A stretch of DNA of 64,000 nt from Pirellulaceae bacterium (GTDB lineage Bacteria; Planctomycetota; Planctomycetia; Pirellulales; Pirellulaceae). The notes beneath the pieces are model-generated. The model was not told the DNA's origin. It was given only the letters and a program-made list of their open reading frames with translations, and ran no database searches. Shown here piece after piece: positions 18,621 through 42,975 of the stretch. The position numbers were made by a program, and so were the translations under genes. The stretch covers positions 13,480-77,479 of the forward strand of contig JALCBQ010000001.1 in NCBI GenBank assembly GCA_028066335.1, given 5' to 3'. Each line of letters opens with the position of its first letter. Positions within the stretch are counted from its first letter, which is position 1.

Positions 18621-18840
18621 TCGATTTCAAGGGAGTTTCCCTTTGGGCAAATGCTTTTGATTTGGCAGTTGACTTCGGTGAGCTGCTTTTTTTTAAAGTT
18701 TTTTTGCAAGGGGCGAATTCTTGTTTTGGCGATAGTCCAAAATGCTCTTGTCTTAGAAAAATAATTATCTTATAGATGGGCAGGGCAGAGAGACTTTCGC
18801 CATTTTTAAAGCATTGTTTGAATTCAAGGATGAGTTCTCT

Positions 18841-19890
18841 ATGAACAGAATGTCGGGTGCGTTGCTGTCAGTGGTTATTGCCATTGGTGGTTTCTTTTTC
18901 TTTAAGAATTTTGAAATAACAGGGTTAGAGGGGGTTTCGTTTCGGCCACGTGGTGAGCATGTCGATGATGGAGCCGACCAGGGACAGGGTAGTGTTACCA
19001 AGACATCAGGTGAACAGGGATCTGGTTTATCAGGAGGGGGGACATCTTTTTCAGAAGGTTCTGCCCATCGAAAAGATTCTATAAAAATCGCCTCGTTTAA
19101 TATTCAGGTTTTTGGAACCTCCAAGTCGAATAAACCTGATGTAATGGCCAAGCTGGCCAATATTGTACGACGATTTGATGTTGTTGCCATTCAGGAAATT
19201 CGCTCTAAAAACCAAGATATTATTCCACAGTTTGTAAATCTTATTAACGCAACAGGGCGAAAGTACTCATTTGCGATCAGTGAACGGATTGGTCGAACTG
19301 TCAGTAAGGAACAATATGTATACATTTTCGATACGGAAACTTTATTACTTGATCGGACAAAATTATACACCGTTCCCGATCATAACGACCTTCTTCACCG
19401 AGAGCCATTTGTCGGTTGGTTCCGTACTCGGGGCCCTCCTGCCGACAAAGCATTTACTTTTACGTTGGTCAATATTCACACCGACCCCGATGAGACCAAG
19501 CAAGAGCTGGATGCACTCGCTGATGTCTATCGTTACGTAAAAAATGATGGACGAAACGAAGACGATGTGATTATTTTAGGAGACCTTAACGTCGATGAGC
19601 ATCACCTTGGTCGCCTTGGGAGTATCCAGGGAATGACCAACGCTATTACTGATGTACCGACAAACACGAGAGGGACCAAACAGTACGATAATCTGATTTT
19701 TCACGGGATGCATACCGACGAATATTTACGCCGATTTGGTGTTTTTGACCTTAAAAGAGAGTTTAATATTAGCGAAGCAGAGGCACTGAGAATTTCAGAC
19801 CATCAGCCTGTATGGGGGGAATTCAGTATCTACGAAGGTGGGCCTGATGTCGGTATTGCAAACAAACCCAATCTACCTGTCAATCGTTGA
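18841..19890 (+). CDS. Secreted/anchored endonuclease-exonuclease-phosphatase (DNase I-like) family protein
   Basis: Hydrophobic N-terminus (ALLSVVIAIGGFFFF) followed by a Gly/Ser-rich linker. Then IKIASFNIQVFG, VVAIQEIR, NIHTDP, GDLN and SDHQPVW, which are EEP/DNase I catalytic motifs. The ATG at 18841 is preferred over the TTG at 18814. Confidence 0.8.
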   Translation: MNRMSGALLSVVIAIGGFFFFKNFEITGLEGVSFRPRGEHVDDGADQGQGSVTKTSGEQGSGLSGGGTSFSEGSAHRKDSIKIASFNIQVFGTSKSNKPDVMAKLANIVRRFDVVAIQEIRSKNQDIIPQFVNLINATGRKYSFAISERIGRTVSKEQYVYIFDTETLLLDRTKLYTVPDHNDLLHREPFVGWFRTRGPPADKAFTFTLVNIHTDPDETKQELDALADVYRYVKNDGRNEDDVIILGDLNVDEHHLGRLGSIQGMTNAITDVPTNTRGTKQYDNLIFHGMHTDEYLRRFGVFDLKREFNISEAEALRISDHQPVWGEFSIYEGGPDVGIANKPNLPVNR

Positions 19891-19988
19891 TCATGTAAAG
19901 TATCTTTGCGTTTACAGTAGAGGCGACTCTGCCTAAGCTTTTCCTGCGGCAAGACTCAAGTTCTCAGCAAAAAAGAGTTATTCAAAAT

Positions 19989-20034
19989 GAGACCTTCAGA
20001 ATCTGAAGCATCAGATTTCAGGGTCTCTTTTTTT
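19989..20034. terminator. Intrinsic terminator between convergent genes
   Basis: GAGACC...ATCTGA-agca-TCAGAT...GGTCTC compound hairpin followed by TTTTTTT on the + strand, with an A-run just upstream. It lies between the stops at 19890 (+) and 20044 (-). Confidence 0.7.
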
Positions 20035-20043
20035 ATTCTGCCT

Positions 20044-20868
20044 TTAGTGATTTTCGCTCCACGGGTTTTCCCAGTGCCCCCAATTTTCCAGGTATTCTTG
20101 GTAAATCGAGCAGACTTTGGACTGATCTTCTACCCAACGTTTGGTTTTGGATAGAAGGGCCTGCTCTTCACTAAGCGAGAGCTGCCCTAACATGACCCGA
20201 CTTCGTAGGAAGAGGAAGTAGGTATCCAGAACATCACATCGGCAATAGTCGTTTATTTCAGCAAGTTTACCATCGTGAAACATGTCTTGAACCATGTCAC
20301 CTTGAACCCGCATTTTTCCCGGTTTTCCTAAAAGGTTTGCTGCAAGGTTCAGCCCTCCATTGAATCGGGTCGCTCCAAAGTTTGTAAGAAGATCTTGAAG
20401 ATCAAAATGGGCCGAGGTGTTATAGCGATTTCTTGGCTGTTCATAGCTTGGGGCATGAAGCCGAAACCATTCCGGGACGCTAATGCCATATCGAAAAGCG
20501 GCAAGTTCTAGGAGAGGAACATCAAAGGTGCGGCCATTAAAAGTCACAAGAGTCGGCTTTTTATAGGCTTGCCAACCTTGCCAAAAATGTTGCGTAATTA
20601 TGTGAGGACGAAATTGGGGTTCGTCCAAAACAACAAGGTCAATGAGTTCAAAATTAGCCCCAATTTTTGCGAGAGCAAGAGAAACGGGTAGTTGGAATGT
20701 ATAAGGGATAAAATCGGAGCCTCGAGTTTCCAGTAGCTCTTTGCGGTATTTTTGAATCGCCTCATTAGGAGAAAGTTCTTCATCGGGAAAATGGATCGTT
20801 GAAATAAGCTTGCCATCAGCGACACTTTCAATATCAAAAACAAAATACTGAATTTTTTGTTCTGGCAT
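20044..20868 (-). CDS. Predicted 3-prime-5-prime exonuclease, PolB-exonuclease-like (RNase H fold)
   Basis: 274 aa. YFVFDIES (ExoI DxE) at the N-terminus, LVTFNGRTFDVPLL (ExoII-like) and DYCRCDVLDTYFLF (ExoIII-like Y..D). This matches my recollection of the 'predicted exonuclease related to PolB exonuclease domain' family. Confidence 0.72.
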   Translation of the reverse strand: MPEQKIQYFVFDIESVADGKLISTIHFPDEELSPNEAIQKYRKELLETRGSDFIPYTFQLPVSLALAKIGANFELIDLVVLDEPQFRPHIITQHFWQGWQAYKKPTLVTFNGRTFDVPLLELAAFRYGISVPEWFRLHAPSYEQPRNRYNTSAHFDLQDLLTNFGATRFNGGLNLAANLLGKPGKMRVQGDMVQDMFHDGKLAEINDYCRCDVLDTYFLFLRSRVMLGQLSLSEEQALLSKTKRWVEDQSKVCSIYQEYLENWGHWENPWSENH

Positions 20869-25115: not shown

Positions 25116-28100
25116 TTAAGCAGGTTTTTTGATTTTGTTAAGAAGTTTATCAATCCCTTTTTTAATCTGGTCGTCGACGGTTTTTTGCAAAGTTGATTGG
25201 AGAAGTTGTTGGATACCTCGCTTGTCAATCTGAGGAGATAATAGTGTTCCAGTAAGGGGCAATGCAAGACGTTGATTTTGTAAGTTAGCCAATGCTCGGT
25301 TTGCATTTGCCCATTTTGGTGGCACGAGGAATTCTACAAGAAGGTTTATTTGTTTGTCTAGAGTAACCGAGCCTTGGGTTTGAACAGTGATTCCCTGAAC
25401 CTGCATAACAAAATTACGGTGTGTAACGATTTCATTGATCATTTGAATAGGAACTTTTTGGGGTGGCAAGAGCAACCAGGTTGTGTCGGCAGCAAGGAGC
25501 TGATTGAGATCACCAAGGTTACTGAGTTGGTTGATTTGAGAAATCAGAGTTGTGATTTCCTGGGCAACAGGGCCGGGGCCTACACGTCCTTGATGGATTT
25601 CAAGGGTTGCAGCGACCTCGCTTTTACTGGAGTCAGAAAGTGCGAACATCGCTTTTTGCACGTCCAGCGAGAATCGGCCGTTGGCCCGTGTCGCTTCGGC
25701 AACGATCGGAGTGGCATATTGGAGCCAGTTCTGACACATTTCTGGGGTGATTTCAATATCGGTAAAAAGCTTCCCCGTCGCTAATGTCAGAGGGAGTATG
25801 GGATCACCAAGGTCGAAAGTTGCAGTCGTCGTTAGTTCACCCCCGTTGACCTGTAGTTTAAGAGGCATCGTTGCGATAATGCCTTTTTGTAATGCAAGGC
25901 CAAATTCACCTTCGTTTATTGTAAATCCTTGTACGGCGACCTTCTGCCAGCCGATTTTTCCACTGGCAGTTAAATTGTCGGGCCACACAATTTGTCTTGT
26001 TGTTAGCTCTGAGGAAGTAATCGGTGTAATTGCCGAAGGTGACGGTTGGATAATGACCTCTTTCCAGTAGGGGAGATCGCCTTGGATTGAGAATGAATCG
26101 GTCCGCTCACCGACGAGTTCTAGTTTTGTCGCTAGAAACTGTTGGAGGTTTGGGCTAAGTTTTTGCAGATTATAAAGAATATTTCCTTGTAGGTCGATGG
26201 TGTGTGTTGTGCCATTTGGTGTTAAGCTCCCCCGAGCGTTCATTGCCGAGTGGATGGTACTTCCTTCGAGTTTAGAGAGGGTCCATTTACCCGTAGTAGG
26301 CGAGTAAGAAGCTTCTAGATTATTTTGGAGAAGTGGCTCTTGCCAAAGTGTTTTCCAGCTATTTTGATCAGGGACCCATTCGACAAGTTGCAGGTTTTCC
26401 CCGTGAAGTGCCAGATTAAAGTTGTTTGAATCTCCTTGAGGGAAGCTGTTCAATGCACCTTGCAACGCTCCAGCTCCGCGCCATGGAGCATCGCCTTCTT
26501 GTTCGAACCAATTCGAGATTTGCCATACATTGAGGTTGAACTGGAGGTTCCCTGTGAATTTTGAAGGATCGCCTACAGGAAGTGAGGTTCTATCGAGCAA
26601 AAGAGCAAGGCTGTTGCCTGTGAGTGAAAGTTTTTCAGCGCTTACTCTTTGGCTTTGTAAAAGGTACGAAAGGTCACCTTCGAGAACTATTTTAGGTTCG
26701 TTGATGGTAAGGCCGTATCCTGTAAATTTTCCCTCATTAATTTCAACCTTAAGGTTGGTTGTGGCGAGCTGTTCGGGTGAGGCCTGAAGCCTCCCTGTTA
26801 AGAAAAAGTTACCGCCTATCTCGTTCTCTTTTAACCCTTCGACAAATGGGATCCGATCTGCAAAGGTCGCCAAATTTCCTGTCGCCTCGATTTGAAAAGG
26901 CCACTCGCTCATGAGCGTTTTGGCGGGCAAAGATTGGAAAAGTACAGCACTAAGTTGATCATTTCCAGAGGCGACCTTGACCGTTAGCTTGTCAACAATC
27001 GTTTTGTCTGAGGTAAGGTCATCATTGTCGATTTTCATCTGTGCGTCGGTAATAAAAATCAACTTTTCTTCTTTCCAAGGGCGTTGGCCTTCTGAGGCGA
27101 GATGAAAATTTTGGGCGACGAGTTCTGCCCGAGCGGCTAAATGACTTTGGTCATTTTGATCCCACTGAATAGCCCCGTTAAGGTCACCTTGTAGTTCTGA
27201 AAAAGGAAGATTAAGAATAGGGGACATTTCATGCTTTAATTTGTTTAAATCGCCACTAAAACGAAGAAGGCCCTGCTTGATATTGCCACCCCCATTTGCC
27301 TGCAAAAAGGGAGAGTTAAGAGCGAGGTTATCAAGGCGAAGTTCTTGACTGAGATCAAAAGTGACCGAGGCATCCATTGCGGGAAGCGAAGAGACGCTCT
27401 GTTTCTTATCAATACCTTCGATGTTTTTAAGGGCGACCTGACCGGTGAATTTTTGGCTGCTAGCTTGTTGTGCGACGGAGAAAAGAAGTTGTCCATCGGT
27501 AATTTCTAACCCTTCCTGAATAAGGAGTGTTTTAGGGATGGCTTTACTCAGGGTAGCCAGATTCACTTGGCCTGTTGCTTGTGCTTCTGAGAGAGTTTGA
27601 AGGAGTTTTGTGTAGTCATCGAAGTTAAGAGGGAATGACCCTGAGGCGGAGACGTTCCCAAGATCGGCTACAGCCTCGAATGAAGTAATTTCTATCTTCT
27701 CTGTATCAATAATAAAGTCGCCTTGAACGTCAAAGTTCTGAATGGCTATTTTTTCCTCTGCGGCAAAACTTGGGTTTTGGTAGTGAATGCGAGAAGACCG
27801 TAGAGGAGTAAAAACAATTTGATGCTTTCCATTGGTAAGGAGCTCATATTTTCCTACCGCCGTGAGGTGACCGGCGAGAGGAAGAGGTTGAACCGGGAAG
27901 TTTTCTGTCGAAACATATCGATGTACAATAGGGTCAAGAAGGCCAAGGTTTACGTCGGTCGAGTCAAACGCAACAGTGCAGTGACTTGCACCAGTAGATA
28001 ACTCTGCGTCGCTTCGGGGATGATAGTCAATCGTTGCTGCAAACGTTCCATAGTCATTTTGAGAGGGGAATTTTTTGTTGAGAACTGTTTTCCCTTCAAC

Positions 28101-28745
28101 GACACAGTGGAGTTGATTTTCTTGGGTTGGATCGTATGTTAGCTCAGCAGCGATTTGATTAAGCTGCCATTTCTCGTTAGAACCTTTTTGAGCCACCATG
28201 AGGCTCCCGTTTTGGACAAGAAGGTCAAGGTTGATTTTGGAATCGGTGCTTTCCTGGTCCCATAGTGGTTTAAGAAGTTCTTCGAGATCGGATGATCCTT
28301 GCTCGACAGTGATAGAAATTTGTGGATCGGTCAAAATGATCGTGCCAAGGTTCGTTTGATCGGTTAGAAGAGTCAACAGTGAGTTCTCAGTTTTGGCCTG
28401 TCTAATGGTTACCAGGGTTGCTGAACCGTCTTCGGTTGTAAGCTTGATGTTGGTAAGTGTTACTGGTGAGAACCAGCCTAAAGAGAAGGAGCCAGCGCGC
28501 CCCTTTGCTGCAATGGGAAGTGAGCTCTGGAGGAGATAGTTAGGCAATGGCGTAAATGAGAGAATGGAGGGGGCTAAATAAAGAAGTAGAAAGAAGATTG
28601 TAAAAGAAAGGCTTCCACGAAGAATACGCCGTCTTTGTCGCTTGATTTTTTCGATACGTGATGTTTGACGGGAAGGTTGCCCTTGAGGGCTTTCAGATGT
28701 CGTTGGAAGTTCCGTAGTGGTCTCTCTTTGAGTCGGTTGCGTCAC
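25116..28745 (-). CDS. Large TM-anchored, beta-rich envelope protein, AsmA/TamB-like (tentative)
   Basis: 1209 aa, GTG start. The N-terminus is basic, followed by one TM helix (LSFTIFFLLLYLAPSILSF). The remainder is a very long Asn/Gln/Thr/Gly-rich predicted beta region without enzymatic motifs. This architecture is typical of AsmA-like bridge proteins. The assignment is by architecture only. Confidence 0.55.
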   Translation of the reverse strand: MTQPTQRETTTELPTTSESPQGQPSRQTSRIEKIKRQRRRILRGSLSFTIFFLLLYLAPSILSFTPLPNYLLQSSLPIAAKGRAGSFSLGWFSPVTLTNIKLTTEDGSATLVTIRQAKTENSLLTLLTDQTNLGTIILTDPQISITVEQGSSDLEELLKPLWDQESTDSKINLDLLVQNGSLMVAQKGSNEKWQLNQIAAELTYDPTQENQLHCVVEGKTVLNKKFPSQNDYGTFAATIDYHPRSDAELSTGASHCTVAFDSTDVNLGLLDPIVHRYVSTENFPVQPLPLAGHLTAVGKYELLTNGKHQIVFTPLRSSRIHYQNPSFAAEEKIAIQNFDVQGDFIIDTEKIEITSFEAVADLGNVSASGSFPLNFDDYTKLLQTLSEAQATGQVNLATLSKAIPKTLLIQEGLEITDGQLLFSVAQQASSQKFTGQVALKNIEGIDKKQSVSSLPAMDASVTFDLSQELRLDNLALNSPFLQANGGGNIKQGLLRFSGDLNKLKHEMSPILNLPFSELQGDLNGAIQWDQNDQSHLAARAELVAQNFHLASEGQRPWKEEKLIFITDAQMKIDNDDLTSDKTIVDKLTVKVASGNDQLSAVLFQSLPAKTLMSEWPFQIEATGNLATFADRIPFVEGLKENEIGGNFFLTGRLQASPEQLATTNLKVEINEGKFTGYGLTINEPKIVLEGDLSYLLQSQRVSAEKLSLTGNSLALLLDRTSLPVGDPSKFTGNLQFNLNVWQISNWFEQEGDAPWRGAGALQGALNSFPQGDSNNFNLALHGENLQLVEWVPDQNSWKTLWQEPLLQNNLEASYSPTTGKWTLSKLEGSTIHSAMNARGSLTPNGTTHTIDLQGNILYNLQKLSPNLQQFLATKLELVGERTDSFSIQGDLPYWKEVIIQPSPSAITPITSSELTTRQIVWPDNLTASGKIGWQKVAVQGFTINEGEFGLALQKGIIATMPLKLQVNGGELTTTATFDLGDPILPLTLATGKLFTDIEITPEMCQNWLQYATPIVAEATRANGRFSLDVQKAMFALSDSSKSEVAATLEIHQGRVGPGPVAQEITTLISQINQLSNLGDLNQLLAADTTWLLLPPQKVPIQMINEIVTHRNFVMQVQGITVQTQGSVTLDKQINLLVEFLVPPKWANANRALANLQNQRLALPLTGTLLSPQIDKRGIQQLLQSTLQKTVDDQIKKGIDKLLNKIKKPA

Positions 28746-31705: not shown

Positions 31706-31794
31706 TTATAGAAAATAGTTTCTCTAGAGGGGTTTGAGCCTGTTTGTGGGGTGATCCCATGGAAAGTAGCGGAGTACTTAATTCTCCACCTAGC

Positions 31795-34011
31795 CTATAG
31801 ATCAAAATAAAAAGTTTGCAATAGGGTGCGGTATAACCTTTGACCAATAGTTTGGTAACCGGTGTGGATATAGGCTGTCCCACTTCCGCCATTAAGTGTC
31901 GAGTCGGGGTTTTTCTCAAGTGGTACACTCGCCTTGTAAGAGACGTTTAGCGATGAAGTAAGTCTGCTTTTTTCGTTTCGAGATGGACTAGAGTCTTTTT
32001 CCCGATTTTCCAATAACGCTTGGTGTTGATGGTCATCTTGAGCGATATACTCAATCGTTCCCTGGAAAACTTTCCCTGGCTCACTCGTTAATGTTAAAGC
32101 GACAGTTTGGTTTTGTTTAATAAACTCGATTTTATTTTGTGGAATGGTAAGAATCGCTTCGAACTGATTAGTTGGGGCGATCTCCAGTAAAAGCTGATCA
32201 CCACGGAGGTAGGATCCTAGTTTTTCTTTTTTTAGAAGAGGTGCATTGTTGTTTGGAGTTGAGGTTGTCGCTTGTTGGTGACCAGTATAGCGGACTGGCA
32301 AATAGGCGGTTCCGGCTAGAGGAGAACGTATAGTTAGCCCTTCTTTCTCCTGTTGATATGCTTCGAGCTGTTCTGTGATTGCATCGATTTTTGCTTTTAA
32401 TCGTAAGAGGTCAAGGCTGGCATTGTTTTCCAAAAGTGCAAGCTGGTTAGCAGTCTGTTGCTCTAGTTCTGCTAACTCGAGATCTCCTTTGAGTTCTTCA
32501 ATTTGTCGTTCGAGCTCTCGGTTTTCAAGAAAAACAAGAGGCATTTCTTTGTCGACAACAGCCCCATTCGTAACATGGAAATCCTTTAGTTGTCCAGCGA
32601 CGGGAGGATAAACTTGAACGGCATTTTTGGGTTGAAGGTAGAACTTGCAACGGACCGAATAGGGGAGGGGAATCCAAAGGATACCAATGATAATACCAGT
32701 CAGGAGAGTCAACGAAATAAGGATAGATCTTGATTGGAGCATTGTTTGTTTTCCCGGGGTTCGAAGAAAGGAAACGAATCGGGTGGCAGGTAAAACCAAG
32801 AGTGTAAAGAGAGAGAGAAATACGAGTAATTGGCCGATGATTTGTAAGCCATAGGGTTTAAAAATATGGTAAAGCATCCAAAGAATTGATAAAGAGAGTA
32901 TCCAGCGGTAAACCAAACAGGCGACACTATACAGGGCAAAAATAATACGGTTCTTCTGGGGTAAAAAGGGATCGCGTTTCTCAGGGAGACCTAGACACCA
33001 TTTGCCTGCTGTTTGTCTTAGTGAGGCATTTGCCTTATCACGTAGGTTGGGTATTTCTAAATAATCTGAAAGGATGTAGTAACCGTCGAAACGCATGAGA
33101 GGGTTTGCGTTAAACAACAAGGTGCCAGTTGAACAAACGACCATCACATTCAGGGCTAAAAAATGAAGCAGCCCCTCTTGGGTAAACCACCACAAAAAGG
33201 TCGCCCCGGCCGCTAGCAAAATTTCAAAATAAATTCCACCTGCCCCAATTGTTATTCTTTGCCACTTGTTTGGTAAAGTCCAGCTGTCTGAGACATCGCA
33301 ATACAGACAGGGCATAAAGACCAGAAACATGACCCCCATCTCGTGGCATTCGCTTCCATAGTATTTGCAAGCAATTCCGTGACCAAATTCATGAATGATT
33401 TTGGTAATTGTTAGTGTGATTCCAAGGAGGAGCCAGTTTTCAGCAGAAAAGAAAGTATAAAAATCAGGAAGCCTTTCAGTAAATTCATTAAACTGAGAAA
33501 AAATTAAAAAAAGTGCCGAAAGGGCAAAGAAACCTCCAAAGGCGATAGCCGGTAAAGAGAATAACCATCCAAAATAATGGGTTGCTTTCTCCAGAATTGT
33601 TGTTGGATTCATCCCTGGGAGGCGGAGAAATAGAAAGTTCGAAAAGAGAGCAAGCCTCTTTTTTTGTTGGTTTTTTTGTTGTCTTTGGTATAAAACATCG
33701 CCTTGACCAGACTGCTCAGAAATAAGAAGGCCACTTTGATGGAGGGAGCCAAGAAAGTGTTCTAGTTCCTGAAGAGAGAGTTGTTTGGGAGCATGTTTTT
33801 CGTAAAATTGCTTTTGAATTTCGGCGACAGTTTTCTGCCCATCTAGTAACTGAAGAAGAGTGTACTCCTCTTCGGCAAAACGGTAATATTTAAGAGTAAG
33901 AGGGTCTTTTAGCAGCCAGTAGTTTTGTCCTTGATACGTCTGTACGACAGCTTTTAGTTCCGTTCGAAACCTTAAATTTAAAGGGCGAGTTGTTTCAATC
34001 GAAGAAGACAA
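31795..34011 (-). CDS. Fusion protein: PqqD/RRE-like N-domain + site-2-protease (peptidase M50) membrane core + HlyD-like periplasmic adaptor domain
   Basis: 738 aa. HEFGH at 33379-33393 and NANPLMRFDG at 33082-33111 are the S2P HExxH and NxxPxxxxDG signatures. Multiple hydrophobic helices. The C-terminal ~290 aa contain a heptad coiled coil (ELERQIEELKGDLELAELEQQ...) and a beta-rich end like membrane-fusion proteins. The N-terminal ~100 aa (YWLLKDPLTLKYYRFAEEEYTLLQLLDGQKTVAEI...) look PqqD-like. Confidence 0.85.
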   Translation of the reverse strand: MSSSIETTRPLNLRFRTELKAVVQTYQGQNYWLLKDPLTLKYYRFAEEEYTLLQLLDGQKTVAEIQKQFYEKHAPKQLSLQELEHFLGSLHQSGLLISEQSGQGDVLYQRQQKNQQKKRLALFSNFLFLRLPGMNPTTILEKATHYFGWLFSLPAIAFGGFFALSALFLIFSQFNEFTERLPDFYTFFSAENWLLLGITLTITKIIHEFGHGIACKYYGSECHEMGVMFLVFMPCLYCDVSDSWTLPNKWQRITIGAGGIYFEILLAAGATFLWWFTQEGLLHFLALNVMVVCSTGTLLFNANPLMRFDGYYILSDYLEIPNLRDKANASLRQTAGKWCLGLPEKRDPFLPQKNRIIFALYSVACLVYRWILSLSILWMLYHIFKPYGLQIIGQLLVFLSLFTLLVLPATRFVSFLRTPGKQTMLQSRSILISLTLLTGIIIGILWIPLPYSVRCKFYLQPKNAVQVYPPVAGQLKDFHVTNGAVVDKEMPLVFLENRELERQIEELKGDLELAELEQQTANQLALLENNASLDLLRLKAKIDAITEQLEAYQQEKEGLTIRSPLAGTAYLPVRYTGHQQATTSTPNNNAPLLKKEKLGSYLRGDQLLLEIAPTNQFEAILTIPQNKIEFIKQNQTVALTLTSEPGKVFQGTIEYIAQDDHQHQALLENREKDSSPSRNEKSRLTSSLNVSYKASVPLEKNPDSTLNGGSGTAYIHTGYQTIGQRLYRTLLQTFYFDL

Positions 34012-34042: not shown

Positions 34043-35017
34043 TTATTGATGAACTAACATTGAGGCATTCATTCCGGGGCGGAGTAACCACTGACCTTTG
34101 TGTTGCATGTTGTTTACTTCGGCGCGTATTCGGTAATTGTTTCCCGCCCCAACGATCGGATCGATTAAAGTGACTTGACCTTGAATTTGAAATTTCTGGT
34201 TGCCGGCAAGGCCTGCTTCAATGGTCACTGGCTTACCGAGTAAGTCGGAGGGGTTCGCTCGATCAACACGAATTCGGCCGACGACACGTAGCTTATCCAT
34301 TTGGATAATACGTAGTATCGGCTCACCAACGTTCACCCACTCTCCTTTTTGCTTTTGAATTTCCCAGATGAGTCCTTGGGTCGGTGCAACAATTTTTCTC
34401 CGTTGGATACTCAATTGCGAGGCGTCGACCTCATCTTGTTTTATTTCGGCAGTTAATTTGGCGACTTTAAGGTTAAGGCGGCTCCGGTCTATTTGAAGAG
34501 CGGCTTGTTCTCGGGCTAACTTTAGCCGGCGAATGTCGGCCTCGGGAACGGCACCAGGAGATCGTTTGTTTATTTGTTCGTCTTGTTCGAGTTCGGCCTT
34601 TGCCACGGCAAAAGCTGCCTCGGCAAATCGGACTTCGATATCATCGTTTGCTTCGACCTGAGCAGCAAGGAGTTGGCGATGGGAGGCCTTTTTTTGCAAT
34701 TGAGGCTGGTCGTCGTTTATCTGAACAAGGAGAGTGTTAGCCTGAACATAATCACCTTCTTTAATATTCATTGCAGTGATTGGGCCTGCCTCTTGGGCTG
34801 AGAGGCGTACATCTTGAATAAGGCTAACCAGGCAGAGAGGAATAACAATTGGTTCAGTGGCATGGCGATTTTGTTCTTTAGTAAGCTGAGTCGCCAGCAC
34901 TTGTTTCTTTTCAGGGAGAAAAAAGGAGAGGCAAAAGAGAGGTACCCCGACAATAAGAAGAGAAAAAGCAAGTTTTCTAAAAGAGGAGGTATAAAACCTA
35001 TAGGAGAAGTAGTTCAT
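34043..35017 (-). CDS. HlyD-family periplasmic adaptor (membrane-fusion protein)
   Basis: 324 aa. N-terminal TM helix (LAFSLLIVGVPLFCLSFF), a biotin-lipoyl-like segment (IKEGDYVQANTLLVQIND), a coiled coil, then IVAPTQGLIWEI and a beta-barrel-like C-terminus. Confidence 0.8.
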   Translation of the reverse strand: MNYFSYRFYTSSFRKLAFSLLIVGVPLFCLSFFLPEKKQVLATQLTKEQNRHATEPIVIPLCLVSLIQDVRLSAQEAGPITAMNIKEGDYVQANTLLVQINDDQPQLQKKASHRQLLAAQVEANDDIEVRFAEAAFAVAKAELEQDEQINKRSPGAVPEADIRRLKLAREQAALQIDRSRLNLKVAKLTAEIKQDEVDASQLSIQRRKIVAPTQGLIWEIQKQKGEWVNVGEPILRIIQMDKLRVVGRIRVDRANPSDLLGKPVTIEAGLAGNQKFQIQGQVTLIDPIVGAGNNYRIRAEVNNMQHKGQWLLRPGMNASMLVHQ

Positions 35018-35062: not shown

Positions 35063-37270
35063 TTACCACCAAAGAGCTGCTTTGGTTTGAATCGTTTCTA
35101 TAAAGTCCTGGAAAATGACATAACCAAGAGATTGGCGACCACATAAAATTTGGGCGCTAACACTTGCACTCGGTCGAAGATCAGGGATTTTTTCTCTCTC
35201 GACAGCAACATAGACAGGAACAAATTGTTTTCCTTCAGGGGTACGGGTCGTTGTCGTGTCGATTTGGGTCACGGTGCCGTAAAATGATTCTCCGGGAAGG
35301 GTCGCTAGAGTAAAGTGGACGGTGAGCTTTTCTTTTTTCTGGTGAGCAAGAAGGTGCTTAAGGCGACGTTCAGGGACCTGAAGTTCAAGTTGCCATTGGC
35401 CTGTCGCCTGAACGATTTTCATTAAAGTTTGTCCCTGTTGAACTGGCCGCTGGGTAAGTTGTTTTTTAACTTGCCACGTGGTGATTTGGCCATCAAGGGG
35501 ACTATGGATCGTCAGTTGTTTTTGTTTGAGCTGCTGCAGATGTTGTTGGCGGAGAATATTTTCCTCTTCTTGCCGTAGTTGGGTGAGGTTCCCGCTTACT
35601 TGTAATTCTTCTTGTTGGCTTAGCTTTTGATGGTTGAATTTTTGTTCATGGGCAAAAATTTTCTCTTGAACATTACGGAGATCACCTTCAAGCTTGTTGG
35701 TTTGAAGGTCAAAGTTAGCATTGTAGAGCTGAGCTAGTGGTTGGCCTGCTTTGACCTTTTGGCCGTGCTCAACAAAAACCTCCTCCACGAGGCCCTCATA
35801 AGGAGAGAAAACCTGTTGTCCGACAACGGGCTGCAGTTCGCCTTTTGCAAACATTTTAAAGTCGGCCGGTATACAGAATAAGGTTGCCAACGTAGCAAAG
35901 AAGATTAGGAAGAGAGTCGTAGTCCTAGACTGTGGAAGCTCCTTTCTGATCACCCCTAGTTTTTTCCAAAGAGGGAGTAGAAAAAGATGGCTATGTTCTT
36001 TCGCATTTCCTAAGGCAAGGGTGCTATGTTCTACAGCAGAGGCGATAAGATTTCGGTCTTTCGGCGCAAAGGTTCCTTGTTTTAGTCGTTCAAAGAGAAG
36101 CAATCCAACGAGATGTTTCTTTTTTTTCTTAGGATGTTCTTGGGAGGAGGTGTTACCTTCTCGGTAGAAAAGAGGCTCAATTCGAAGCGCCTTAGTATGG
36201 GACAGGTCAAGATAATGTTGTAGAGGTGCTTCAAGTTGAGGTGGAAGGGGAGCTATAGACTCATTCGCCGATGGGGATGGTTCCTCGTAGTGAAACGGTT
36301 TGAGAGTTTGGGAAACGCTCGAAACGAGCTTTGTTAGAGCAATATTTGTTTGCGAACGGGGTTGGATTTGGTCAATTCCACTAGTTGCTACGACCTCGAC
36401 TTTGGAGCCTCGAATATTGAGAAGACTTACTCGATCTACATTAGTGAGATGGCGGCCTTCATTCACGACGGTGTAAGCTGTCTTTTTCCAGTCAAGGGAT
36501 TGATGAACTTGTCGGATAAATTGTTGTTGTGGTTGCCACTGGCTTTGCATGCGGACGAGGTGACGGAGATGACGATCTTTAAAATAGGTCGATGCTAAAC
36601 GACTCATGTTTTGTAGAAAGTTGAGGTAGCCATGGCGGATTTTAGGGTCTTGTTGAGGGCGTTGGAAAATTTCGAGAAGTCCGATGACAGTTTTCCCTTT
36701 GGGGACATCTTGAGAAACATCAACGAGAGATTGATCAAGATAAAGTGGAACGATTATACGAAGATACCCTGTCGGATTCCCTTTTTCTCCTGGAAGGAGG
36801 ACTGTCGGTTTTGCTTTTTTTAAGAAGATGGCTAAGAATTGTTGGTGTTTTTCTTGAGTCTCTCTGTTTTGTAGAAGAGGCAGGTCATTGTTATTGACCT
36901 GAAAAGAGAGGTCAGAGATTACGCCTTTATCAATTTCCCATAGGAGACCGGCTGGAGCAGCGAGGGCTTCGACGACTCGTGGGAGAAATTCGCTGGCGAA
37001 GACGTGGGGATCAGGATTTTGGGCGATAATTGCTTCAATTTCGTGAACAAGAGACTGAATTTGTGAACGGGTTTCTAAAAGAAGTTTCTCGCCGATATGA
37101 TCGGCCGGGTTAGCTGATCGTTGAGAAGCTGAGTTAGGCAGTTGGTTTTCAGAAGGGTTGGCCGTGGGGAACGGGATCGTTGAATCGTCTTTTCTGCTCT
37201 TCCTTTTTGTGTGAAGAGTTCTTTTTTGAGAAGAAGATTTTTGTGGTTGAGGTATCGGCTCGGACGACAT
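35063..37270 (-). CDS. Tandem GAF-like cytoplasmic domains + TM + HlyD-like periplasmic adaptor
   Basis: 735 aa. Residues ~60-235 and ~250-425 each show a GAF-like pattern (...AGLLWEID...RIIVPLY...VIGLLEIFQR, and DRVSLLNIRGSKVEVVATSG...IEPLF...LVGLLLFERL). TM helix TTLFLIFFATLATLFCIP. Then a lipoyl-like VKAGQPLAQL, a long coiled coil, IHSPLDGQI and a beta-rich end. Confidence 0.7.
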   Translation of the reverse strand: MSSEPIPQPQKSSSQKRTLHTKRKSRKDDSTIPFPTANPSENQLPNSASQRSANPADHIGEKLLLETRSQIQSLVHEIEAIIAQNPDPHVFASEFLPRVVEALAAPAGLLWEIDKGVISDLSFQVNNNDLPLLQNRETQEKHQQFLAIFLKKAKPTVLLPGEKGNPTGYLRIIVPLYLDQSLVDVSQDVPKGKTVIGLLEIFQRPQQDPKIRHGYLNFLQNMSRLASTYFKDRHLRHLVRMQSQWQPQQQFIRQVHQSLDWKKTAYTVVNEGRHLTNVDRVSLLNIRGSKVEVVATSGIDQIQPRSQTNIALTKLVSSVSQTLKPFHYEEPSPSANESIAPLPPQLEAPLQHYLDLSHTKALRIEPLFYREGNTSSQEHPKKKKKHLVGLLLFERLKQGTFAPKDRNLIASAVEHSTLALGNAKEHSHLFLLPLWKKLGVIRKELPQSRTTTLFLIFFATLATLFCIPADFKMFAKGELQPVVGQQVFSPYEGLVEEVFVEHGQKVKAGQPLAQLYNANFDLQTNKLEGDLRNVQEKIFAHEQKFNHQKLSQQEELQVSGNLTQLRQEEENILRQQHLQQLKQKQLTIHSPLDGQITTWQVKKQLTQRPVQQGQTLMKIVQATGQWQLELQVPERRLKHLLAHQKKEKLTVHFTLATLPGESFYGTVTQIDTTTTRTPEGKQFVPVYVAVEREKIPDLRPSASVSAQILCGRQSLGYVIFQDFIETIQTKAALWW

Positions 37271-37617
37271 TTATTTTTGGTGAGGTAAATGGAAAGATTT
37301 CAGGCAAGAGACTTGCCCCGCAGTTTAGTGAAAAGGCAGGGAATATTCCTTCGAGATAATTTGTAAAAATGGGACACAGCTAAAAGGGAGAGGGACGACG
37401 ACTATAGCAAAATAGAACGTTTGGGAGAATGGCAGTTCGGTGGCGGGTATGGTTGAGGGAATAAAATGATTGTAAAGGATAATTTGGGGTAGCTTTTCTT
37501 GACGGGCTGTGCGAAAATATCGAGCTTTGGCCCCCTTTATCTAGCGGACTATTAGGGACGTTCTGTAGTCGTTTATGGGGTTAAGGCTCTTAAGAAATGT
37601 GGTTCCCATAAATCTCC

Positions 37618-38134: not shown

Positions 38135-38246
38135 AAGCTTTGGTAATGTTATCAGAAGGTTTCCTTTTGGAGGCCTGTGCGGTATCTTGGTAGGTTCTGT
38201 TTATATAGAAATTATTATTTATTTAGCTCAAGGTAGGAGAAATTTC

Positions 38247-39890
38247 GTGAGAAAGTTTGTAAGCAAAACAATCCTGTGTTTGGCGGCCGTTGCCTTGTTG
38301 GCTTTGCCCCTTACTCGGGCAAATGCACAAGATGTTGAGTTGGCAGGTGGCGTTAAGCCGACGATGATTGTTGCAACAGCGAGTGTCGATGAGCTGCTCT
38401 CTGATGCGAATTATATTGCTACCGCCGTTGGTAACCCTGAGTCTGTGATGATGGCCCAGTTTATGCTTCGTGGAATGATTAACGGCGTTGACACAGGGAA
38501 ACCGGTTGGTGCTGTTCTCGGATTTGATGGTATCGAGCCAGTCCCCTTTGTTATGGTTCCGGTGAGTAATTTAGACGCCATCATGGCGAGTGTAGGACAG
38601 GCAGGGACAGTTGAGTTTGAAGAGCTGGAGGAAAACCTTTATTCACTAGAGATTCCTCCAGGAGAGACGGTCTATCTAACGGTTGATAATGGGTATGCCC
38701 TTTTGGCGACCGACCTTGATGTTCTGGAGAACTCTTCGGTCTCCCCTGAAAAATTGCTTTCCAAAATGACGGAAAAGCACGATATTGCGGTTGATATCTT
38801 TGTTCAGAATTTCCCTGCAGAGTTCAAGGACCAATTCCTACATGAAATGAAATTAGGGTACGAAAATTCTATTCGTTTTATGAGCGAAGAAGATCGTATT
38901 AATTCCCAAGCGGTCATGGACACGATGTTCAATAATTTTGAACGTATCTTTGATGAACTTACCCGGGTAAGTTATGCAATCGGTGTTGATGAAGATAGTA
39001 CCAAAACTTATCTCGATGTTGCTGTAACGGCCCTTCCTGGTTCTGAAATTGATGAACTCATTGAAAGTTCTCGCTCGTTGCAATCAGATTATCTTGGGTT
39101 CTTGGTCTCTGACGCAGCTGTTACTTACAACGCAGTCGGTAAATCGGCCCAAAATGACATCGATAATGTTGTTGCAATGCTCGACAATGTCGAGACACAA
39201 GTCCTTGATCAAATGGAGGGTGAACTTAGTGGAGAAGATCTTCTCCTTGCTCAGGGTATTGTGAAAAAACTTCTTGATGTCACCAAAGAGTCCGTCGCTC
39301 AGGAAAAAAATGATGGTGGAGCTGCCCTGATTCTAAAGCCGGGCCAGTTTACCTTTGTAGCTGGCGCTTATACGGAATCTGGTGACAAAATCACTGATGC
39401 AGTTAGCGATCTCTTTACCCTTATTTCAGAAAAGGGCGAAGGTGTACCGATTGATCTTTCGACCTTTAGCGATGGTGGAATCGACTTTCATAAGATGGTC
39501 GTCACCTTGCCTGAATTAGACGAAGGACGAAAGGTATTTGGCGAAACGGTCGAAGTCTTGATTGGCAACAATAATAAGTCTGTCTATGTCGGGTTAGGAA
39601 ACGAGTGCCTTCCAACTTTAAAGAAGATAATCAGTAACCCTGGTTTACCAACTGGCGCAAAAGAGTTACCTACTCAGTTTAATATTTCGGTTGTTCCTAT
39701 ATTGAACTTTGTTGCTGCATTAGATGAGAACCCTGTCATGGATGCTGTTGCTCAACAGGCTGAAAAGTATGCTGGTGACGACAGCCTTCGATTGTCTGCC
39801 GATTACATCCCGAATGGTGTTTCGATCCGTCTTCAAATTGATGAAGGTATTTGGAAAATTATTGGTGAAGTGGCACAGTTAGGCCAATAA
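38247..39890 (+). CDS. Secreted protein of unknown function, paralog A of a tandem pair
   Basis: GTG start 8 nt after AGGTAGGAGA. Signal peptide VRKFVSKTILCLAAVALLALPLTRANA-QD. ~547 aa, acidic, with no enzymatic motif recognised. It is collinear with the next gene. The ORF-track start at 38187 is less likely, because it has no signal peptide context. Confidence 0.75.
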   Translation: MRKFVSKTILCLAAVALLALPLTRANAQDVELAGGVKPTMIVATASVDELLSDANYIATAVGNPESVMMAQFMLRGMINGVDTGKPVGAVLGFDGIEPVPFVMVPVSNLDAIMASVGQAGTVEFEELEENLYSLEIPPGETVYLTVDNGYALLATDLDVLENSSVSPEKLLSKMTEKHDIAVDIFVQNFPAEFKDQFLHEMKLGYENSIRFMSEEDRINSQAVMDTMFNNFERIFDELTRVSYAIGVDEDSTKTYLDVAVTALPGSEIDELIESSRSLQSDYLGFLVSDAAVTYNAVGKSAQNDIDNVVAMLDNVETQVLDQMEGELSGEDLLLAQGIVKKLLDVTKESVAQEKNDGGAALILKPGQFTFVAGAYTESGDKITDAVSDLFTLISEKGEGVPIDLSTFSDGGIDFHKMVVTLPELDEGRKVFGETVEVLIGNNNKSVYVGLGNECLPTLKKIISNPGLPTGAKELPTQFNISVVPILNFVAALDENPVMDAVAQQAEKYAGDDSLRLSADYIPNGVSIRLQIDEGIWKIIGEVAQLGQ

Positions 39891-40004: not shown

Positions 40005-40068
40005 GGGGCCCTTCTTGTATACCAGATGTTCTGACATTTAGGTTACCTTTTCTTTGCCCTTTCTTATC

Positions 40069-41763
40069 ATGAGGCACATTGTGAGACTTCTATACCGATT
40101 CTCAATGGCTCTTATTTGGCTTTCTTCTTCTCCTTTGATGGCAGGGTACTCTCAGGAAGTAGTTGTAAAAAGTGAGGCCCAACTTGCGGCATTCCAGGAG
40201 GAAGAGATCGGTTTTGTAGCTATTAAAAATCTGGGACGGGTCCAGGCGATTTTTCAAAAATATTCTCAAAAATTAGGGCTAGGGGCAGAGGCCATTTTCG
40301 TACAAGCTGCTCTCAACGGCATGAGCACAGTCGTGGATAACGAGCGACCAATAGGTATCGTCTTCGATCACTCAAAGGAGAAAAAAGAGTACACTCTCGT
40401 GTTACCCGTTAAAAATAAAAAAGGATGTGAAGACCTTTTTCATAGCTTTGCCTCTCTTGGAAAAGCAGAAATTCAGAAACATGAGGGTTACGAGACTGTG
40501 AGTATCCCAGGTTATCCTAGACCTTTAGCAGTCTCGATTACCGATCAATGGTGGACGATTACCTTAAACCATGAGGCGTTACAAGAGGTTCAAAATATAG
40601 AAGGGCTTGAAGAACACTTACAAAAGCTCACCGAGGCCAATGATGTTAGCCTATGGATGCCAATTAAGCCACTCATTGCTGACTTTGAGAATTTAATACC
40701 CCAGGTACTAGATACCAACGAGGTGATTGACCCTCGGTTTTCTACCGGCTTACCACCTGAGAAATTGCACGAATTACAAACGTTACGGGCGTGTGTGCAG
40801 TGGGCAAAACCTTATGTTCTGGAGGGGGAATACCTTGAGCAAGGGCTAACCTTTGACTTTGAAAAAGAACAGATCCGCTACCATTTTCACTATCAGCCGG
40901 CAGATGGATCTTCTATTGAGAAGGGGCTAACGGGCAAGCATATTAAGAGTTCCCAAGGAGGGTTTGTTAGTAATGAAGTCGCATTTTTTTCCCAGTGGAA
41001 TTTTGAACTAGGAGAAGACCTCATCAATGTGTTCCAGCTCCTTTGCAAGCAGCTTAAGGCACAGATGCGAGGAAGCTTAGAAACCGAAATGCCTGCTCAA
41101 GTCCGCGAGATGGTAATTTCTCTCGGTGACCGCCTGCTAAACCTTATTGAAGAAACGGCGGCGGAAAAACGGATCTATGGAGGAGTTCGGTTTGAATTCG
41201 CAGGAATGGAAACGACCTCCGTTGTCGGGACCGGTCTCGCTGATGGATATGAGCTCGAAGATATTATCGGAACCCTAATGGAAGAGGGGGGGGAGTACGA
41301 TGCTATAGTCTACGATTACGATTGGTATAAAGGTTTCAACATTCATAAAATTGAAGTTCCAGCTGGTGATCAGGAAGACGAAATAGCAGCTGCCGATTTT
41401 TTTCTTGCCATCGCTGAAAAAGAGGCTTATCTAGCTCTTGCAGATGAGCGAGGTCGCCTAGCTCTAAGAAGAGTTCTAAAAGATGCTGCAGAAAGAGAAG
41501 AAGACCTTAAGGCGGCTGGCTTTATCGTACAAATTAACGGTAAACATTTTGCCGGAGGAATTTACAATACTTTCCCCGAGGAAAGCTCGATTCCTAGTAT
41601 TCAACAAAAAAGTGAGGCACTCCAAAAATTTCTCACCGACCCGAAATTACAAGAGAAAAGTGACTTAATTCAACTAAAAGTGACCCAGGAAAAGGGAGCG
41701 GTTCAGGGCACCCTGATTTTTGATGAGGTAAACCTAGGGTGGCTAATCCCGTTAATGAAATAG
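40069..41763 (+). CDS. Secreted protein of unknown function, paralog B of a tandem pair
   Basis: ATG at 40069 gives the signal-like N-terminus MRHIVRLLYRFSMALIWLSSSPLMAG. ~564 aa. Shares collinear weak similarity blocks with paralog A (see findings). Confidence 0.75.
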   Translation: MRHIVRLLYRFSMALIWLSSSPLMAGYSQEVVVKSEAQLAAFQEEEIGFVAIKNLGRVQAIFQKYSQKLGLGAEAIFVQAALNGMSTVVDNERPIGIVFDHSKEKKEYTLVLPVKNKKGCEDLFHSFASLGKAEIQKHEGYETVSIPGYPRPLAVSITDQWWTITLNHEALQEVQNIEGLEEHLQKLTEANDVSLWMPIKPLIADFENLIPQVLDTNEVIDPRFSTGLPPEKLHELQTLRACVQWAKPYVLEGEYLEQGLTFDFEKEQIRYHFHYQPADGSSIEKGLTGKHIKSSQGGFVSNEVAFFSQWNFELGEDLINVFQLLCKQLKAQMRGSLETEMPAQVREMVISLGDRLLNLIEETAAEKRIYGGVRFEFAGMETTSVVGTGLADGYELEDIIGTLMEEGGEYDAIVYDYDWYKGFNIHKIEVPAGDQEDEIAAADFFLAIAEKEAYLALADERGRLALRRVLKDAAEREEDLKAAGFIVQINGKHFAGGIYNTFPEESSIPSIQQKSEALQKFLTDPKLQEKSDLIQLKVTQEKGAVQGTLIFDEVNLGWLIPLMK

Positions 41764-41889: not shown

Positions 41890-42975
41890 TCACTCGTTAG
41901 ACTTTACTTTTGAAGTAAATGCGGCATCGAGAAGGCGAGAGCGAAGGTTTTGGCATGTTTTTTGGAAAGTCTGAGGGTCTTTAGAGAGCTTCTCGACGTC
42001 ACTATTTTTTGTGCGGCTGTCGGTTGGGGGATCTTTAGCAGGAGCAGAAGAGGGCTGGAGCGGAGTCCCACAAATATAATGGTTGTCCGTTCCATCGTGC
42101 CAAAAAATTTGGTTACGCCCTTTTTCCTTTGCAGCATAGAGTGCTAAATCGGCCTGTCTTAGCATTTCGCTCACGTCATTGGCCGTCGAGGAATAGGCGA
42201 CACCACCACTTAGAGTAAACTGCAGCGTTTGCTGTTCATAAGAAATTTGCAAACGTTCGGCTGTTTGGCGACATTTTTCTGCGATTTCAGCAACGAGTTT
42301 TGGGTTGGCTTTGGGTAGAAGTAGGGCAAATTCTTCGCCACCAAGTCGAAAAACAAGATCGGGCTTGGTATGGGAGCTTTGCAAACATAGGGCGATTTGC
42401 TTAAGGACGAGATCTCCAGCTGGATGGCCATAGGTATCATTGATCGATTTGAAATAATCAGCATCAAATAGAAACAGAGCGGCCGTTGAATGAGTAGACT
42501 TTCCCGAGAGGATCTTCTCAAGAGTTGTCTCGAAGGCGCGGCGGTTACCAAGCCCGGTTAGACTGTCGGTGCGAGCTTCACAAAGGTATTTTTCTAGTTG
42601 GCCAGCTTGATTATGGATTCGATGCTCGGCTTGTTCAAGGCGAGTTTGTAGCTCTTGGTTTGCTGCAAAAACTTGTTGCCAGAGTGAATTGTCCGTTGGT
42701 TTAGTATCAAGAGGGGAGGTCTCTGCGATTTCTTGCCACTGTGCGAGGGTGTGGCGATATTGAGAGACGTCATCTGAGACCGTATGGGCAGTTGCCGAAA
42801 GTTCGCTAACCAGGCTCGCGATTTCGGTTTTTTCAGCGTTGCTCATTTTGGGTGATTCTTGCCATCGAAAAGAGGCCCAAACCCCGAGGGCCAGCCCTAG
42901 AATCAAAAAGAGGGCACTAAAAAGAGAGCCTAAAATAAAGGGATCATAGCTCATTGTGGCTGTTGGGTAGTCCAT
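41890..42975 (-). CDS. Diguanylate cyclase (TM + coiled coil + GGDEF domain)
   Basis: N-terminal TM helix (ILGSLFSALFLILGLALGVWASF), then DSLTGLGNRRAF, FDADYFKSINDTYGHPAGD and active-site RLGGEEFALLL. Confidence 0.9.
   Translation of the reverse strand: MDYPTATMSYDPFILGSLFSALFLILGLALGVWASFRWQESPKMSNAEKTEIASLVSELSATAHTVSDDVSQYRHTLAQWQEIAETSPLDTKPTDNSLWQQVFAANQELQTRLEQAEHRIHNQAGQLEKYLCEARTDSLTGLGNRRAFETTLEKILSGKSTHSTAALFLFDADYFKSINDTYGHPAGDLVLKQIALCLQSSHTKPDLVFRLGGEEFALLLPKANPKLVAEIAEKCRQTAERLQISYEQQTLQFTLSGGVAYSSTANDVSEMLRQADLALYAAKEKGRNQIFWHDGTDNHYICGTPLQPSSAPAKDPPTDSRTKNSDVEKLSKDPQTFQKTCQNLRSRLLDAAFTSKVKSNE

Follow-up and report, generated by a model that had tools for sequence, protein, structure and literature searches.

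RiPP recognition element (RRE) domains are usually seen as handles for small precursors of RiPPs (ribosomally synthesised and post-translationally modified peptides), and site-2 proteases (S2Ps) as signalling or leader peptidases. What, then, would a protein that unites both in a single chain recognise and cut, and where would the product go? This question is raised by a gene for a 738-residue protein in the 64,000-nucleotide stretch of Pirellulaceae bacterium DNA analysed here (the window, to whose first letter all window positions refer). A preliminary description made from the sequence had read this protein as a catalytically intact S2P core preceded by an RRE-like domain, and had taken the fusion to imply the cleavage of a specific peptide or small protein. 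We found that the chain continues into a third module, so that RRE and S2P are welded to a TolC-type adaptor, or membrane fusion protein (MFP). Its gene is the last of a conserved three-gene cassette, and in Proteobacteria the same fusion lies consistently beside giant proteins, most of them with a common N-terminal motif that is captured in NCBIfam as LEPR-XLL. The gene is probably part of an apparently undescribed machinery for the trimming and export of very large surface proteins with an N-terminal LE-x-R-x-LL tag.

Architecture of the 738-residue protein

In NCBI, the exact match to the protein is named 'HlyD family efflux transporter periplasmic adaptor subunit [Pirellulaceae bacterium]', and its family is large, with more than 4500 homologous proteins (E<1e-5) and at least 599 loci in a collection that holds one genome per species. 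As judged from sequence profiles and structure models, it is a three-module inner-membrane protein, composed of an RRE, an M50/S2P protease and a periplasmic MFP domain. The gene and its parts lie in the window as follows (aa, amino acids; AF2, AlphaFold2).

31795-34011, minus strand: RRE-S2P-MFP fusion protein of 738 aa, an open reading frame (ORF) with a TTG start and its stop codon at 31795-31797
33718-33975, minus strand: RRE/PqqD-like domain, aa 13-98, predicted to be cytoplasmic (Pfam scans, AF2, Foldseek)
32662-33564, minus strand: M50/S2P membrane core, aa ~150-450 (Pfam Peptidase_M50, NCBIfam, hydropathy, AF2)
33379-33393, minus strand: zinc-binding and catalytic motif HEFGH with H207, E208 and H211 (cat gaa ttt ggt cac)
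33082-33111, minus strand: NANPLMRFDG (N301...D309 G310), with the third zinc ligand (aac gca aac cct ctc atg cgt ttc gac ggt)
31798-32661, minus strand: C-terminal MFP (HlyD/MacA-like) domain, aa 451-738, predicted to be periplasmic (Pfam, AF2, Foldseek)

The central module is recognised by the Pfam model Peptidase_M50 (PF02163; 33.6 bits against a gathering cutoff of 27.2; E 3.3e-8) and, over aa 159-325, by the NCBIfam YydH/LiaK model NF058609 (E 1.9e-11), in the latter case with a score of 44 against a cutoff of 225. It comprises seven predicted transmembrane (TM) helices (153-172, 190-217, 249-276, 281-301, 355-387, 390-417 and 427-445 in the AF2 model) and a beta-hairpin (226-235) after the helix that carries HExxH. 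The HEFGH motif occupies aa 207-211, inside predicted helix 190-217, and NANPLMRFDG occupies aa 301-310; read from the minus strand, both lie exactly where they had first been reported. Among 40 full-length planctomycete homologues of 40-44% identity, H207, E208, H211, N301, N303, P304, D309 and G310 are invariant, and H207, E208, H211, N301, P304 and D309 are also invariant in 11 proteobacterial homologues of 21-25% identity. Because the zinc-ligand and catalytic residues are invariant across both phyla, the protease is, on sequence grounds, intact and under selection. Thus, the S2P core of the preliminary description stands as catalytically intact, and the case that was to count against it, in which orthologues lose the HExxH or NPxxxxDG residues and prove to be pseudo-proteases, is excluded by the conservation of these residues. 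Neither a PDZ nor a CBS domain was found with Pfam in the 738-aa protein.

The beta-hairpin after HExxH is flanked by four cysteines, C215, C222, C235 and C238 (CKxxGxEC...PCLYC; aa 215-238; 33298-33369), which are invariant in the 40 planctomycete homologues; each of the 11 proteobacterial ones has A, V or T in their place. We considered whether they form a second metal site of a shared mechanism, and rejected this possibility, as they are specific to planctomycetes. They could represent a lineage-specific metal site or disulfides; the AF2 confidence (predicted local distance difference test, pLDDT) is below 50 at residues 229-241.

For the first ~100 residues, an RRE- or PqqD-like fold had been proposed, and the sequence quoted for it is indeed present. 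The window domain by itself scores below the Pfam PqqD cutoff (14.1-17.4 bits against 23.4; E 0.06 within the full-length sequence, 0.006 when isolated), its match to TIGR03859 is sub-threshold (E 0.054), and a profile search against PDB sequences returned nothing useful, with a single match at E 0.96. When 22 homologous N-domains were scanned singly, PqqD was by far the commonest family (16 of the 22, best E 1.5e-5), and DNA-binding helix-turn-helix (HTH) families were matched only once each. The AF2 model of residues 1-128 (pLDDT 85.7) shows strands at 13-15, 20-26, 29-36 and 41-45, followed by helices at 47-55, 62-73 and 80-93. A Foldseek comparison, which had been suggested as a means of telling an RRE from a generic DNA-binding winged HTH, gave as its best PDB match TbiB1 with its leader (5v1v; E 6.8e-3, probability 1.0, target TM-score 0.69), with further matches to the lasso-peptide protein B1 (6jx3), the sactisynthase CteB, the cyanobactin oxidase ThcOx and TglHI. 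The E-values are modest; all matches are RiPP enzymes, and those at the top are leader-bound RREs, not DNA-binding winged HTH proteins. The Prokaryotic Genome Annotation Pipeline (PGAP), for its part, names proteobacterial homologues 'PqqD family protein' or 'PqqD family peptide modification chaperone'. The fold call agrees across methods: as profiles and models have it, the N-domain is RRE/PqqD-like and not a generic DNA-binding winged HTH, which makes it a putative leader-binding domain.

The preliminary description was silent on the C-terminal ~290 residues. They match Pfam HlyD_3 (41 bits against 22.2) and HlyD_D23 (38.6 against 30), and in the AF2 model they fold into a barrel-sandwich, an alpha-hairpin (498-524/531-557) and a beta-barrel. 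By Foldseek, the domain resembles MacA (1.6e-13), AcrA, MexA and EmrA, all of them TolC-docking adaptors, and there are weak NCBIfam matches to the HlyD protein of NHLP bacteriocin systems. In the full-length AF2 model (pLDDT 76), the RRE is followed by a long helix (103-125) that precedes the membrane core. With seven TM helices in the core, the chain is predicted to run N-in/C-out, from a cytoplasmic RRE to a periplasmic adaptor domain.

The public name of the protein, which many homologues share, suggests a plainer reading, namely an ordinary tripartite efflux or adaptor system, with the M50 part as an inert membrane anchor (a pseudo-protease) and a generic winged helix as the N-domain. The invariance of the zinc-ligand and catalytic residues in two phyla largely refutes this, and the N-domain matches PqqD/RRE and not the DNA-binding HTH families. 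In addition, the cassette to which the gene belongs contains no pump subunit of the RND, ABC or MFS type. We give this reading hardly any credence.

The cassette and its possible substrates

The fusion gene is preceded by two further genes in the same orientation, so that the order is tandem-GAF-MFP (gene 1), small MFP (gene 2) and RRE-S2P-MFP. That both upstream genes encode adaptors had also gone unmentioned; the layout of the operon, with its upstream and downstream gaps, is as previously described.

34043-35017, minus strand: gene 2, small adaptor MFP of 324 aa (Pfam HlyD_3, E 4e-19; RND_mfp, E 2.5e-22)
35063-37270, minus strand: gene 1, tandem-GAF-TM-MFP protein of 735 aa (Pfam HlyD_3 and HlyD_D23)
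37271-37617, no strand: gap of 347 bp between the cassette and the divergent infA, presumed promoter region, without a conserved small ORF
31706-31794, no strand: gap of 89 bp downstream of the fusion gene

Gene 1 encodes a cytoplasmic region of tandem GAF domains (aa ~60-445), one TM helix and an MFP domain; GAF was matched in 12 of 12 homologous N-regions (best E 4.8e-11), and sequence conservation starts at around residue 60. All planctomycete locus counts given here refer to the best 80 of the at least 599 matching loci, nearly all of which are labelled Planctomycetota. Genes 1, 2 and 3 occur in the same order in 57 of these 80 loci. In the 57 cassette loci, and in a few more with a partial upstream flank, gene 2 lies directly upstream of the S2P gene, and it was matched by tblastn in 62 of the 80. 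Across the 80 loci there is no further conserved large neighbour. In one locus (L044), the first cassette is followed ~6 kb downstream by a second and more distant RRE-S2P-MFP paralogue (17692-20090), which is 25% identical over aa 7-563.

One possibility is that the protein is a RiPP-type leader peptidase acting on a small precursor encoded elsewhere, with the peptide being passed to the adaptor conduit for a bacteriocin-like export. Its closest characterised relatives, daptide MpaP and YydH/LiaK, are RiPP leader peptidases, RRE domains are typical of RiPP pathways, and both the Foldseek matches of the N-domain, all of them RiPP enzymes, and the weak matches to NHLP HlyD would fit. The search for a precursor speaks against it. 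No conserved small intergenic ORF was found beside the cassette in the 57 related loci, and among ORFs of 25-130 aa around these cassettes the only clusters were frame-shadow ORFs of the three genes, DUF3467 and infA. The 347-bp and 89-bp gaps of the window contain only tiny unconserved ORFs and no credible short one. The earlier statement that no short precursor-like ORF is visible in the operon or its gaps is thus correct, and it holds for the whole family. Also against the RiPP-type explanation, no modifying enzyme and no ABC/C39 exporter is conserved near the planctomycete cassettes, and the protein misses the cutoff of the daptide protease model (190.6 against 300). Moreover, the strong conservation of the RRE between orders and phyla is easier to reconcile with a single shared motif than with a variety of RiPP leaders, and the neighbours that do recur are giant proteins. 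We regard a RiPP-type role as unlikely.

A second possibility starts from regulated proteolysis, which is the classical role of S2Ps such as RseP and SpoIVFB. The protease might cleave a membrane-anchored partner, such as the GAF adaptor encoded by gene 1, with its one TM helix, or a protein of the anti-sigma type, and thereby switch the assembly of the adaptors or a transcriptional response on or off, with the RRE as the docking site for the partner. Gene 1 does join sensor-type GAF domains with a single TM helix, and the cassette is widespread in Planctomycetota, flanked in some loci by infA and housekeeping genes. Nevertheless, no sigma or anti-sigma gene is conserved nearby, PDZ and CBS domains are missing from the protein, and the M50 core falls with the RiPP leader peptidases and not with the RseP models. 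The cytoplasmic N-tails of genes 1 and 2 are both unconserved and offer no conserved motif as a possible ligand for an RRE that is itself so well conserved. Such a regulatory function seems to us quite improbable.

What remains of the expectation that this protein recognises and cleaves a specific peptide or small protein is therefore divided: the domain identities on which it was built are confirmed, the small precursor as substrate is not, and the comparative context points to the N-terminal leaders of very large secreted proteins, whose genes would lie next door or elsewhere in the genome.

Giant neighbours and the LEPR-XLL motif

A tblastn search of plasmids with residues 1-450 returned 94 records with the same fusion of ~700-730 aa, and we examined ten proteobacterial plasmid contexts with upstream sequence. 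In all ten, the fusion and one or two further adaptor genes lie beside a gene for a large protein, and TolC is encoded there as well in eight. With one exception of 493 aa, these large proteins have 1.4-16 thousand aa, and the following were found.

Azospirillum and Burkholderia contexts: DUF4347 proteins
Citrobacter IncHI1B plasmid context: Ig-like protein
Pseudosulfitobacter (38.7-kb gene) and Thalassospira contexts: 'LEPR-XLL domain' proteins
Methylosinus context: LamG-like protein (26.5 kb)
Variovorax context: tandem-95-repeat protein (48.7 kb)
Eleftheria context: VCBS protein
Magnetospirillum context: ELWxxDGT protein
Phyllobacterium context: HrpK-domain protein

Eight of the ten large neighbours start, after a short basic stretch, with ...ALE[PSA]Rxx[LFY][DSN]A, that is, with the LEPR-XLL motif. 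Examples are ...EALEPRFLLSADP, MALEPRFMFDAAG, ...FALESRQLFDGAA and ...LALEPRVVYDASV, as well as ...DTLEPRVLLNADV, ...EPIEPRILLSADP, ...WALEARLMFDAAA and ...MALEARYMFDAAA. Under the NCBIfam LEPR-XLL model, which has 24 positions and a cutoff of 17, two of the neighbours pass with 31.9 and 29.1, and two others narrowly miss. For comparison, the leader motif of daptides is E-L-D-P-M-E-A-P at positions -8 to -1 (PMC10036551); this leader and LEPR have an L-[DE]-P core in common, a sequence likeness that is suggestive only.

In the Citrobacter freundii context (L083; IncHI1B plasmid NZ_CP142906.1, 267964-287728), the whole module is carried on a clinical-type conjugative plasmid. The order is a 13.4-kb Ig-like gene, whose product starts ...FALESRQLFDGAALA, followed by TolC, the adaptors and the S2P fusion; 18 Escherichia plasmid records also match the query. 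We also weighed a link between this module and RSP, a conjugation protein of IncHI plasmids, and dismissed it: the rsp gene of R27 sits among the trh genes without a cassette, the RSP papers make no mention of TolC, HlyD or S2P genes, and the L083 module is distinct from R27 rsp.

Proteins of a similar kind occur in planctomycetes. In 1.28 Mb of planctomycete loci there are ~11 credible large ORFs whose products have LExRxLL after a basic N-terminus, for instance ...ERLEDRLLLAV, ...ERLESRQLLAV and ...EALERRDLLTT. In four loci (L009, L037, L047 and L077), the LExRxLL protein is encoded directly downstream of the fusion gene on the same strand. By a rough estimate, this position makes up ~4% of the searched sequence, so that ~0.45 cases would be expected by chance (Poisson p ~1e-3).

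Two accessory genes recur as well. A DUF3467 gene (~90-100 aa) adjoins the cassette on the same strand in 28 planctomycete loci (within L014-L079), about half of the cassettes, either directly in front of gene 1 or directly behind the fusion gene (e.g., L015 6463-6732 and L047 12433-12654), and in Thalassospira and Methylosinus it lies between the giant gene and the adaptors. The other accessory gene, named 'prepilin peptidase' in RefSeq, encodes a truncated SecA paralogue of ~640-720 aa (SecA_DEAD, 1e-103; SecA_PP_bind; P-loop_SecA; 597 bits against a SecA cutoff of 814). It stands beside the cassette in three proteobacterial loci (Methylosinus, Pseudosulfitobacter and Rhizobium) and immediately upstream of gene 1 in seven planctomycete loci, with 45-48% identity between the phyla. 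The 'prepilin peptidase' label of the genes at L085 15029-17053 and L086 14204-16120 (NZ_CP085155.1, NZ_AP022333.1) looks like a public annotation error. The full run, consisting of SecA-like protein, GAF-MFP, MFP, RRE-S2P-MFP, DUF3467 and LExRxLL protein, is found in L047, a Bremerella metagenome-assembled genome.

The reading towards which we lean, by a little, is that the RRE-S2P-MFP cassette carries out the leader-guided processing and export of giant proteins of the LEPR-XLL type. The cytoplasmic RRE would bind the short N-terminal LE-x-R-x-LL (LEPR-XLL) leader as an added beta-strand, and the M50 protease would remove it on the cytoplasmic side of the membrane. Together, the three adaptor domains would form a periplasmic conduit, reaching TolC in Proteobacteria, through which the cargo, typically a very large repeat protein, would leave the cell. 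Where they are co-encoded, the truncated SecA paralogue might act as the motor and DUF3467 as a chaperone. We put forward more tentatively, as a possibility, the wider proposal of an undescribed secretion pathway common to Planctomycetota and Proteobacteria, in which the RRE reads LEPR-XLL, the S2P trims, a hetero-oligomeric adaptor tube leads to TolC, and a SecA motor and a DUF3467 chaperone take part without any ABC transporter.

Several points weigh against this view of leader-guided export. The pairing of the RRE with the LExRxLL motif is one that we infer, and two of the ten proteobacterial neighbours lack the ALE[PSA]Rxx[LFY] motif. The NCBIfam LEPR-XLL model does not detect the planctomycete motif proteins, so the likeness between the phyla rests on alignment by eye and a regular expression; the planctomycete enrichment comes from four loci, and most planctomycete cassettes have no candidate cargo adjacent to them. 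Nor does this view account for how the cargo gets across the inner membrane: no ABC transporter or obvious inner-membrane channel is present in the cassette, no ABC transporter partner is conserved in the cassettes of either phylum, and the SecA paralogue is absent from most. In the window and ~20 kb of extra flank we found no LExRxLL protein, SecA paralogue, DUF3467 or TolC, and TolC was not found in the planctomycete loci either. Because the window holds only the three core genes, its cargo, ATPase and outer-membrane partner would have to be encoded elsewhere in the genome. Finally, in ~10 loci (L001, L006, L007, L021, L023, L054, L057, L062, L064 and L076) the fusion gene has no adjacent adaptor genes; the cassette may be split in some lineages, or these may form a paralogous subgroup. 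Among these adaptor-less loci, a glycosyltransferase-like gene lies divergently upstream in five and a ~250-aa ORF directly upstream in three.

If leader-guided export by the cassette is true, a function could be assigned to the LEPR-XLL signal, and the exit of many giant planctomycete and proteobacterial surface proteins without Sec signals would be explained by a secretion route independent of ABC transporters and of the classical pathways. The occurrence of the module on IncHI1B and other enterobacterial plasmids provides genetically tractable test systems, of which L083 is a convenient one for experiments.

Some other genes of the window may also be mentioned. Two adjacent plus-strand ORFs of 567 and 569 aa (38187-39890 and 40054-41763) have no Pfam match, and in 13-14 related loci the former is found in synteny with infA and the cassette. 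A minus-strand ORF of 1209 aa (25116-28745), with an N-terminal TM segment and no Pfam match, is kept near the cassette in 10 related loci. A GGDEF diguanylate cyclase (41890-42975, minus strand; E 1.4e-44) lies ~4.6 kb upstream of the cassette; it may matter given the GAF sensor domains of gene 1, and its linkage to the cassette is not conserved.

Comparison with known systems

The combination of RRE-S2P-MFP, GAF-MFP, MFP, TolC, truncated SecA, DUF3467 and LEPR-XLL cargo matched no dedicated NCBIfam model, and in open-access full text we found no description of such a system, the only relevant paper being the one on daptides (PMC10036551). That paper establishes that the RRE-S2P fusion as such is of an already known kind, which the preliminary description had missed. 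Ren et al. (2023; PMC10036551) found daptide gene clusters through the RRE-S2P fusion MpaP, described it as an RRE-dependent intramembrane leader peptidase and proposed that its job is the leader-guided removal of the N-terminal leader. The closest NCBIfam match of the 738-aa protein is accordingly NF041824, 'daptide biosynthesis intramembrane metalloprotease' (daptide_HExxH), which aligns over aa 22-415 with profile positions 9-375 of 379 (E 4.4e-56) and scores 190.6 bits, below the equivalog cutoff of 300. Both proteins have an N-terminal RRE fused to an M50/S2P core and are homologous over this range. However, MpaP-type proteins end after the protease, as the 379-position model indicates, and the protein described here adds an MFP of ~290 aa; the phylum and the gene context differ as well. 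No daptide precursor, oxidative decarboxylase, aminotransferase or methyltransferase was found near the 57 cassettes or in the window. Because of the score below the cutoff and the lack of daptide genes nearby, we conclude that it is not a daptide protease.

YydH/LiaK proteins share the M50 core with the same motifs, and JGI gives homologues of the 738-aa protein the corresponding KEGG name, 'putative peptide zinc metalloprotease protein'. In contrast to our protein, YydH/LiaK has neither RRE nor MFP, and the window locus lacks the radical-SAM epimerase and the ABC exporter. The signalling proteases RseP and SpoIVFB likewise carry HExxH and NxxPxxxxDG in their TM helices, with a beta-hairpin behind the first of the catalytic helices, whereas the protein in the window has no PDZ or CBS domain and no anti-sigma context, and is fused to an RRE and an MFP.

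On the side of transport, the last 290 aa of the protein, like the products of genes 1 and 2, fold as MacA, AcrA and EmrA do, into barrel-sandwich, alpha-hairpin and beta-barrel, but the adaptor here forms one covalent chain with a protease and has no pump as its partner. The proposed logic is that of the peptidase-containing ABC transporters with HlyD and TolC (bacteriocin-type type I secretion): a protease borne by the exporter recognises and cuts an N-terminal leader, and an MFP, joined in Proteobacteria by TolC, completes the route. The cassette differs in using a zinc M50 peptidase in place of a C39 cysteine peptidase, in having three MFP modules and no ABC transporter, and in its likely cargo, which would be giant proteins and not small bacteriocins. 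In related loci, a dedicated SecA paralogue co-encoded with very large surface proteins recalls the accessory SecA2 systems for the giant adhesins of Gram-positive bacteria, although here the paralogue is truncated (~640-720 aa), is absent from the window and occurs in diderm hosts with MFP and TolC. Against this background, the protein is best described as a putative RRE-S2P leader peptidase of the MpaP/YydH branch with a fused MFP.

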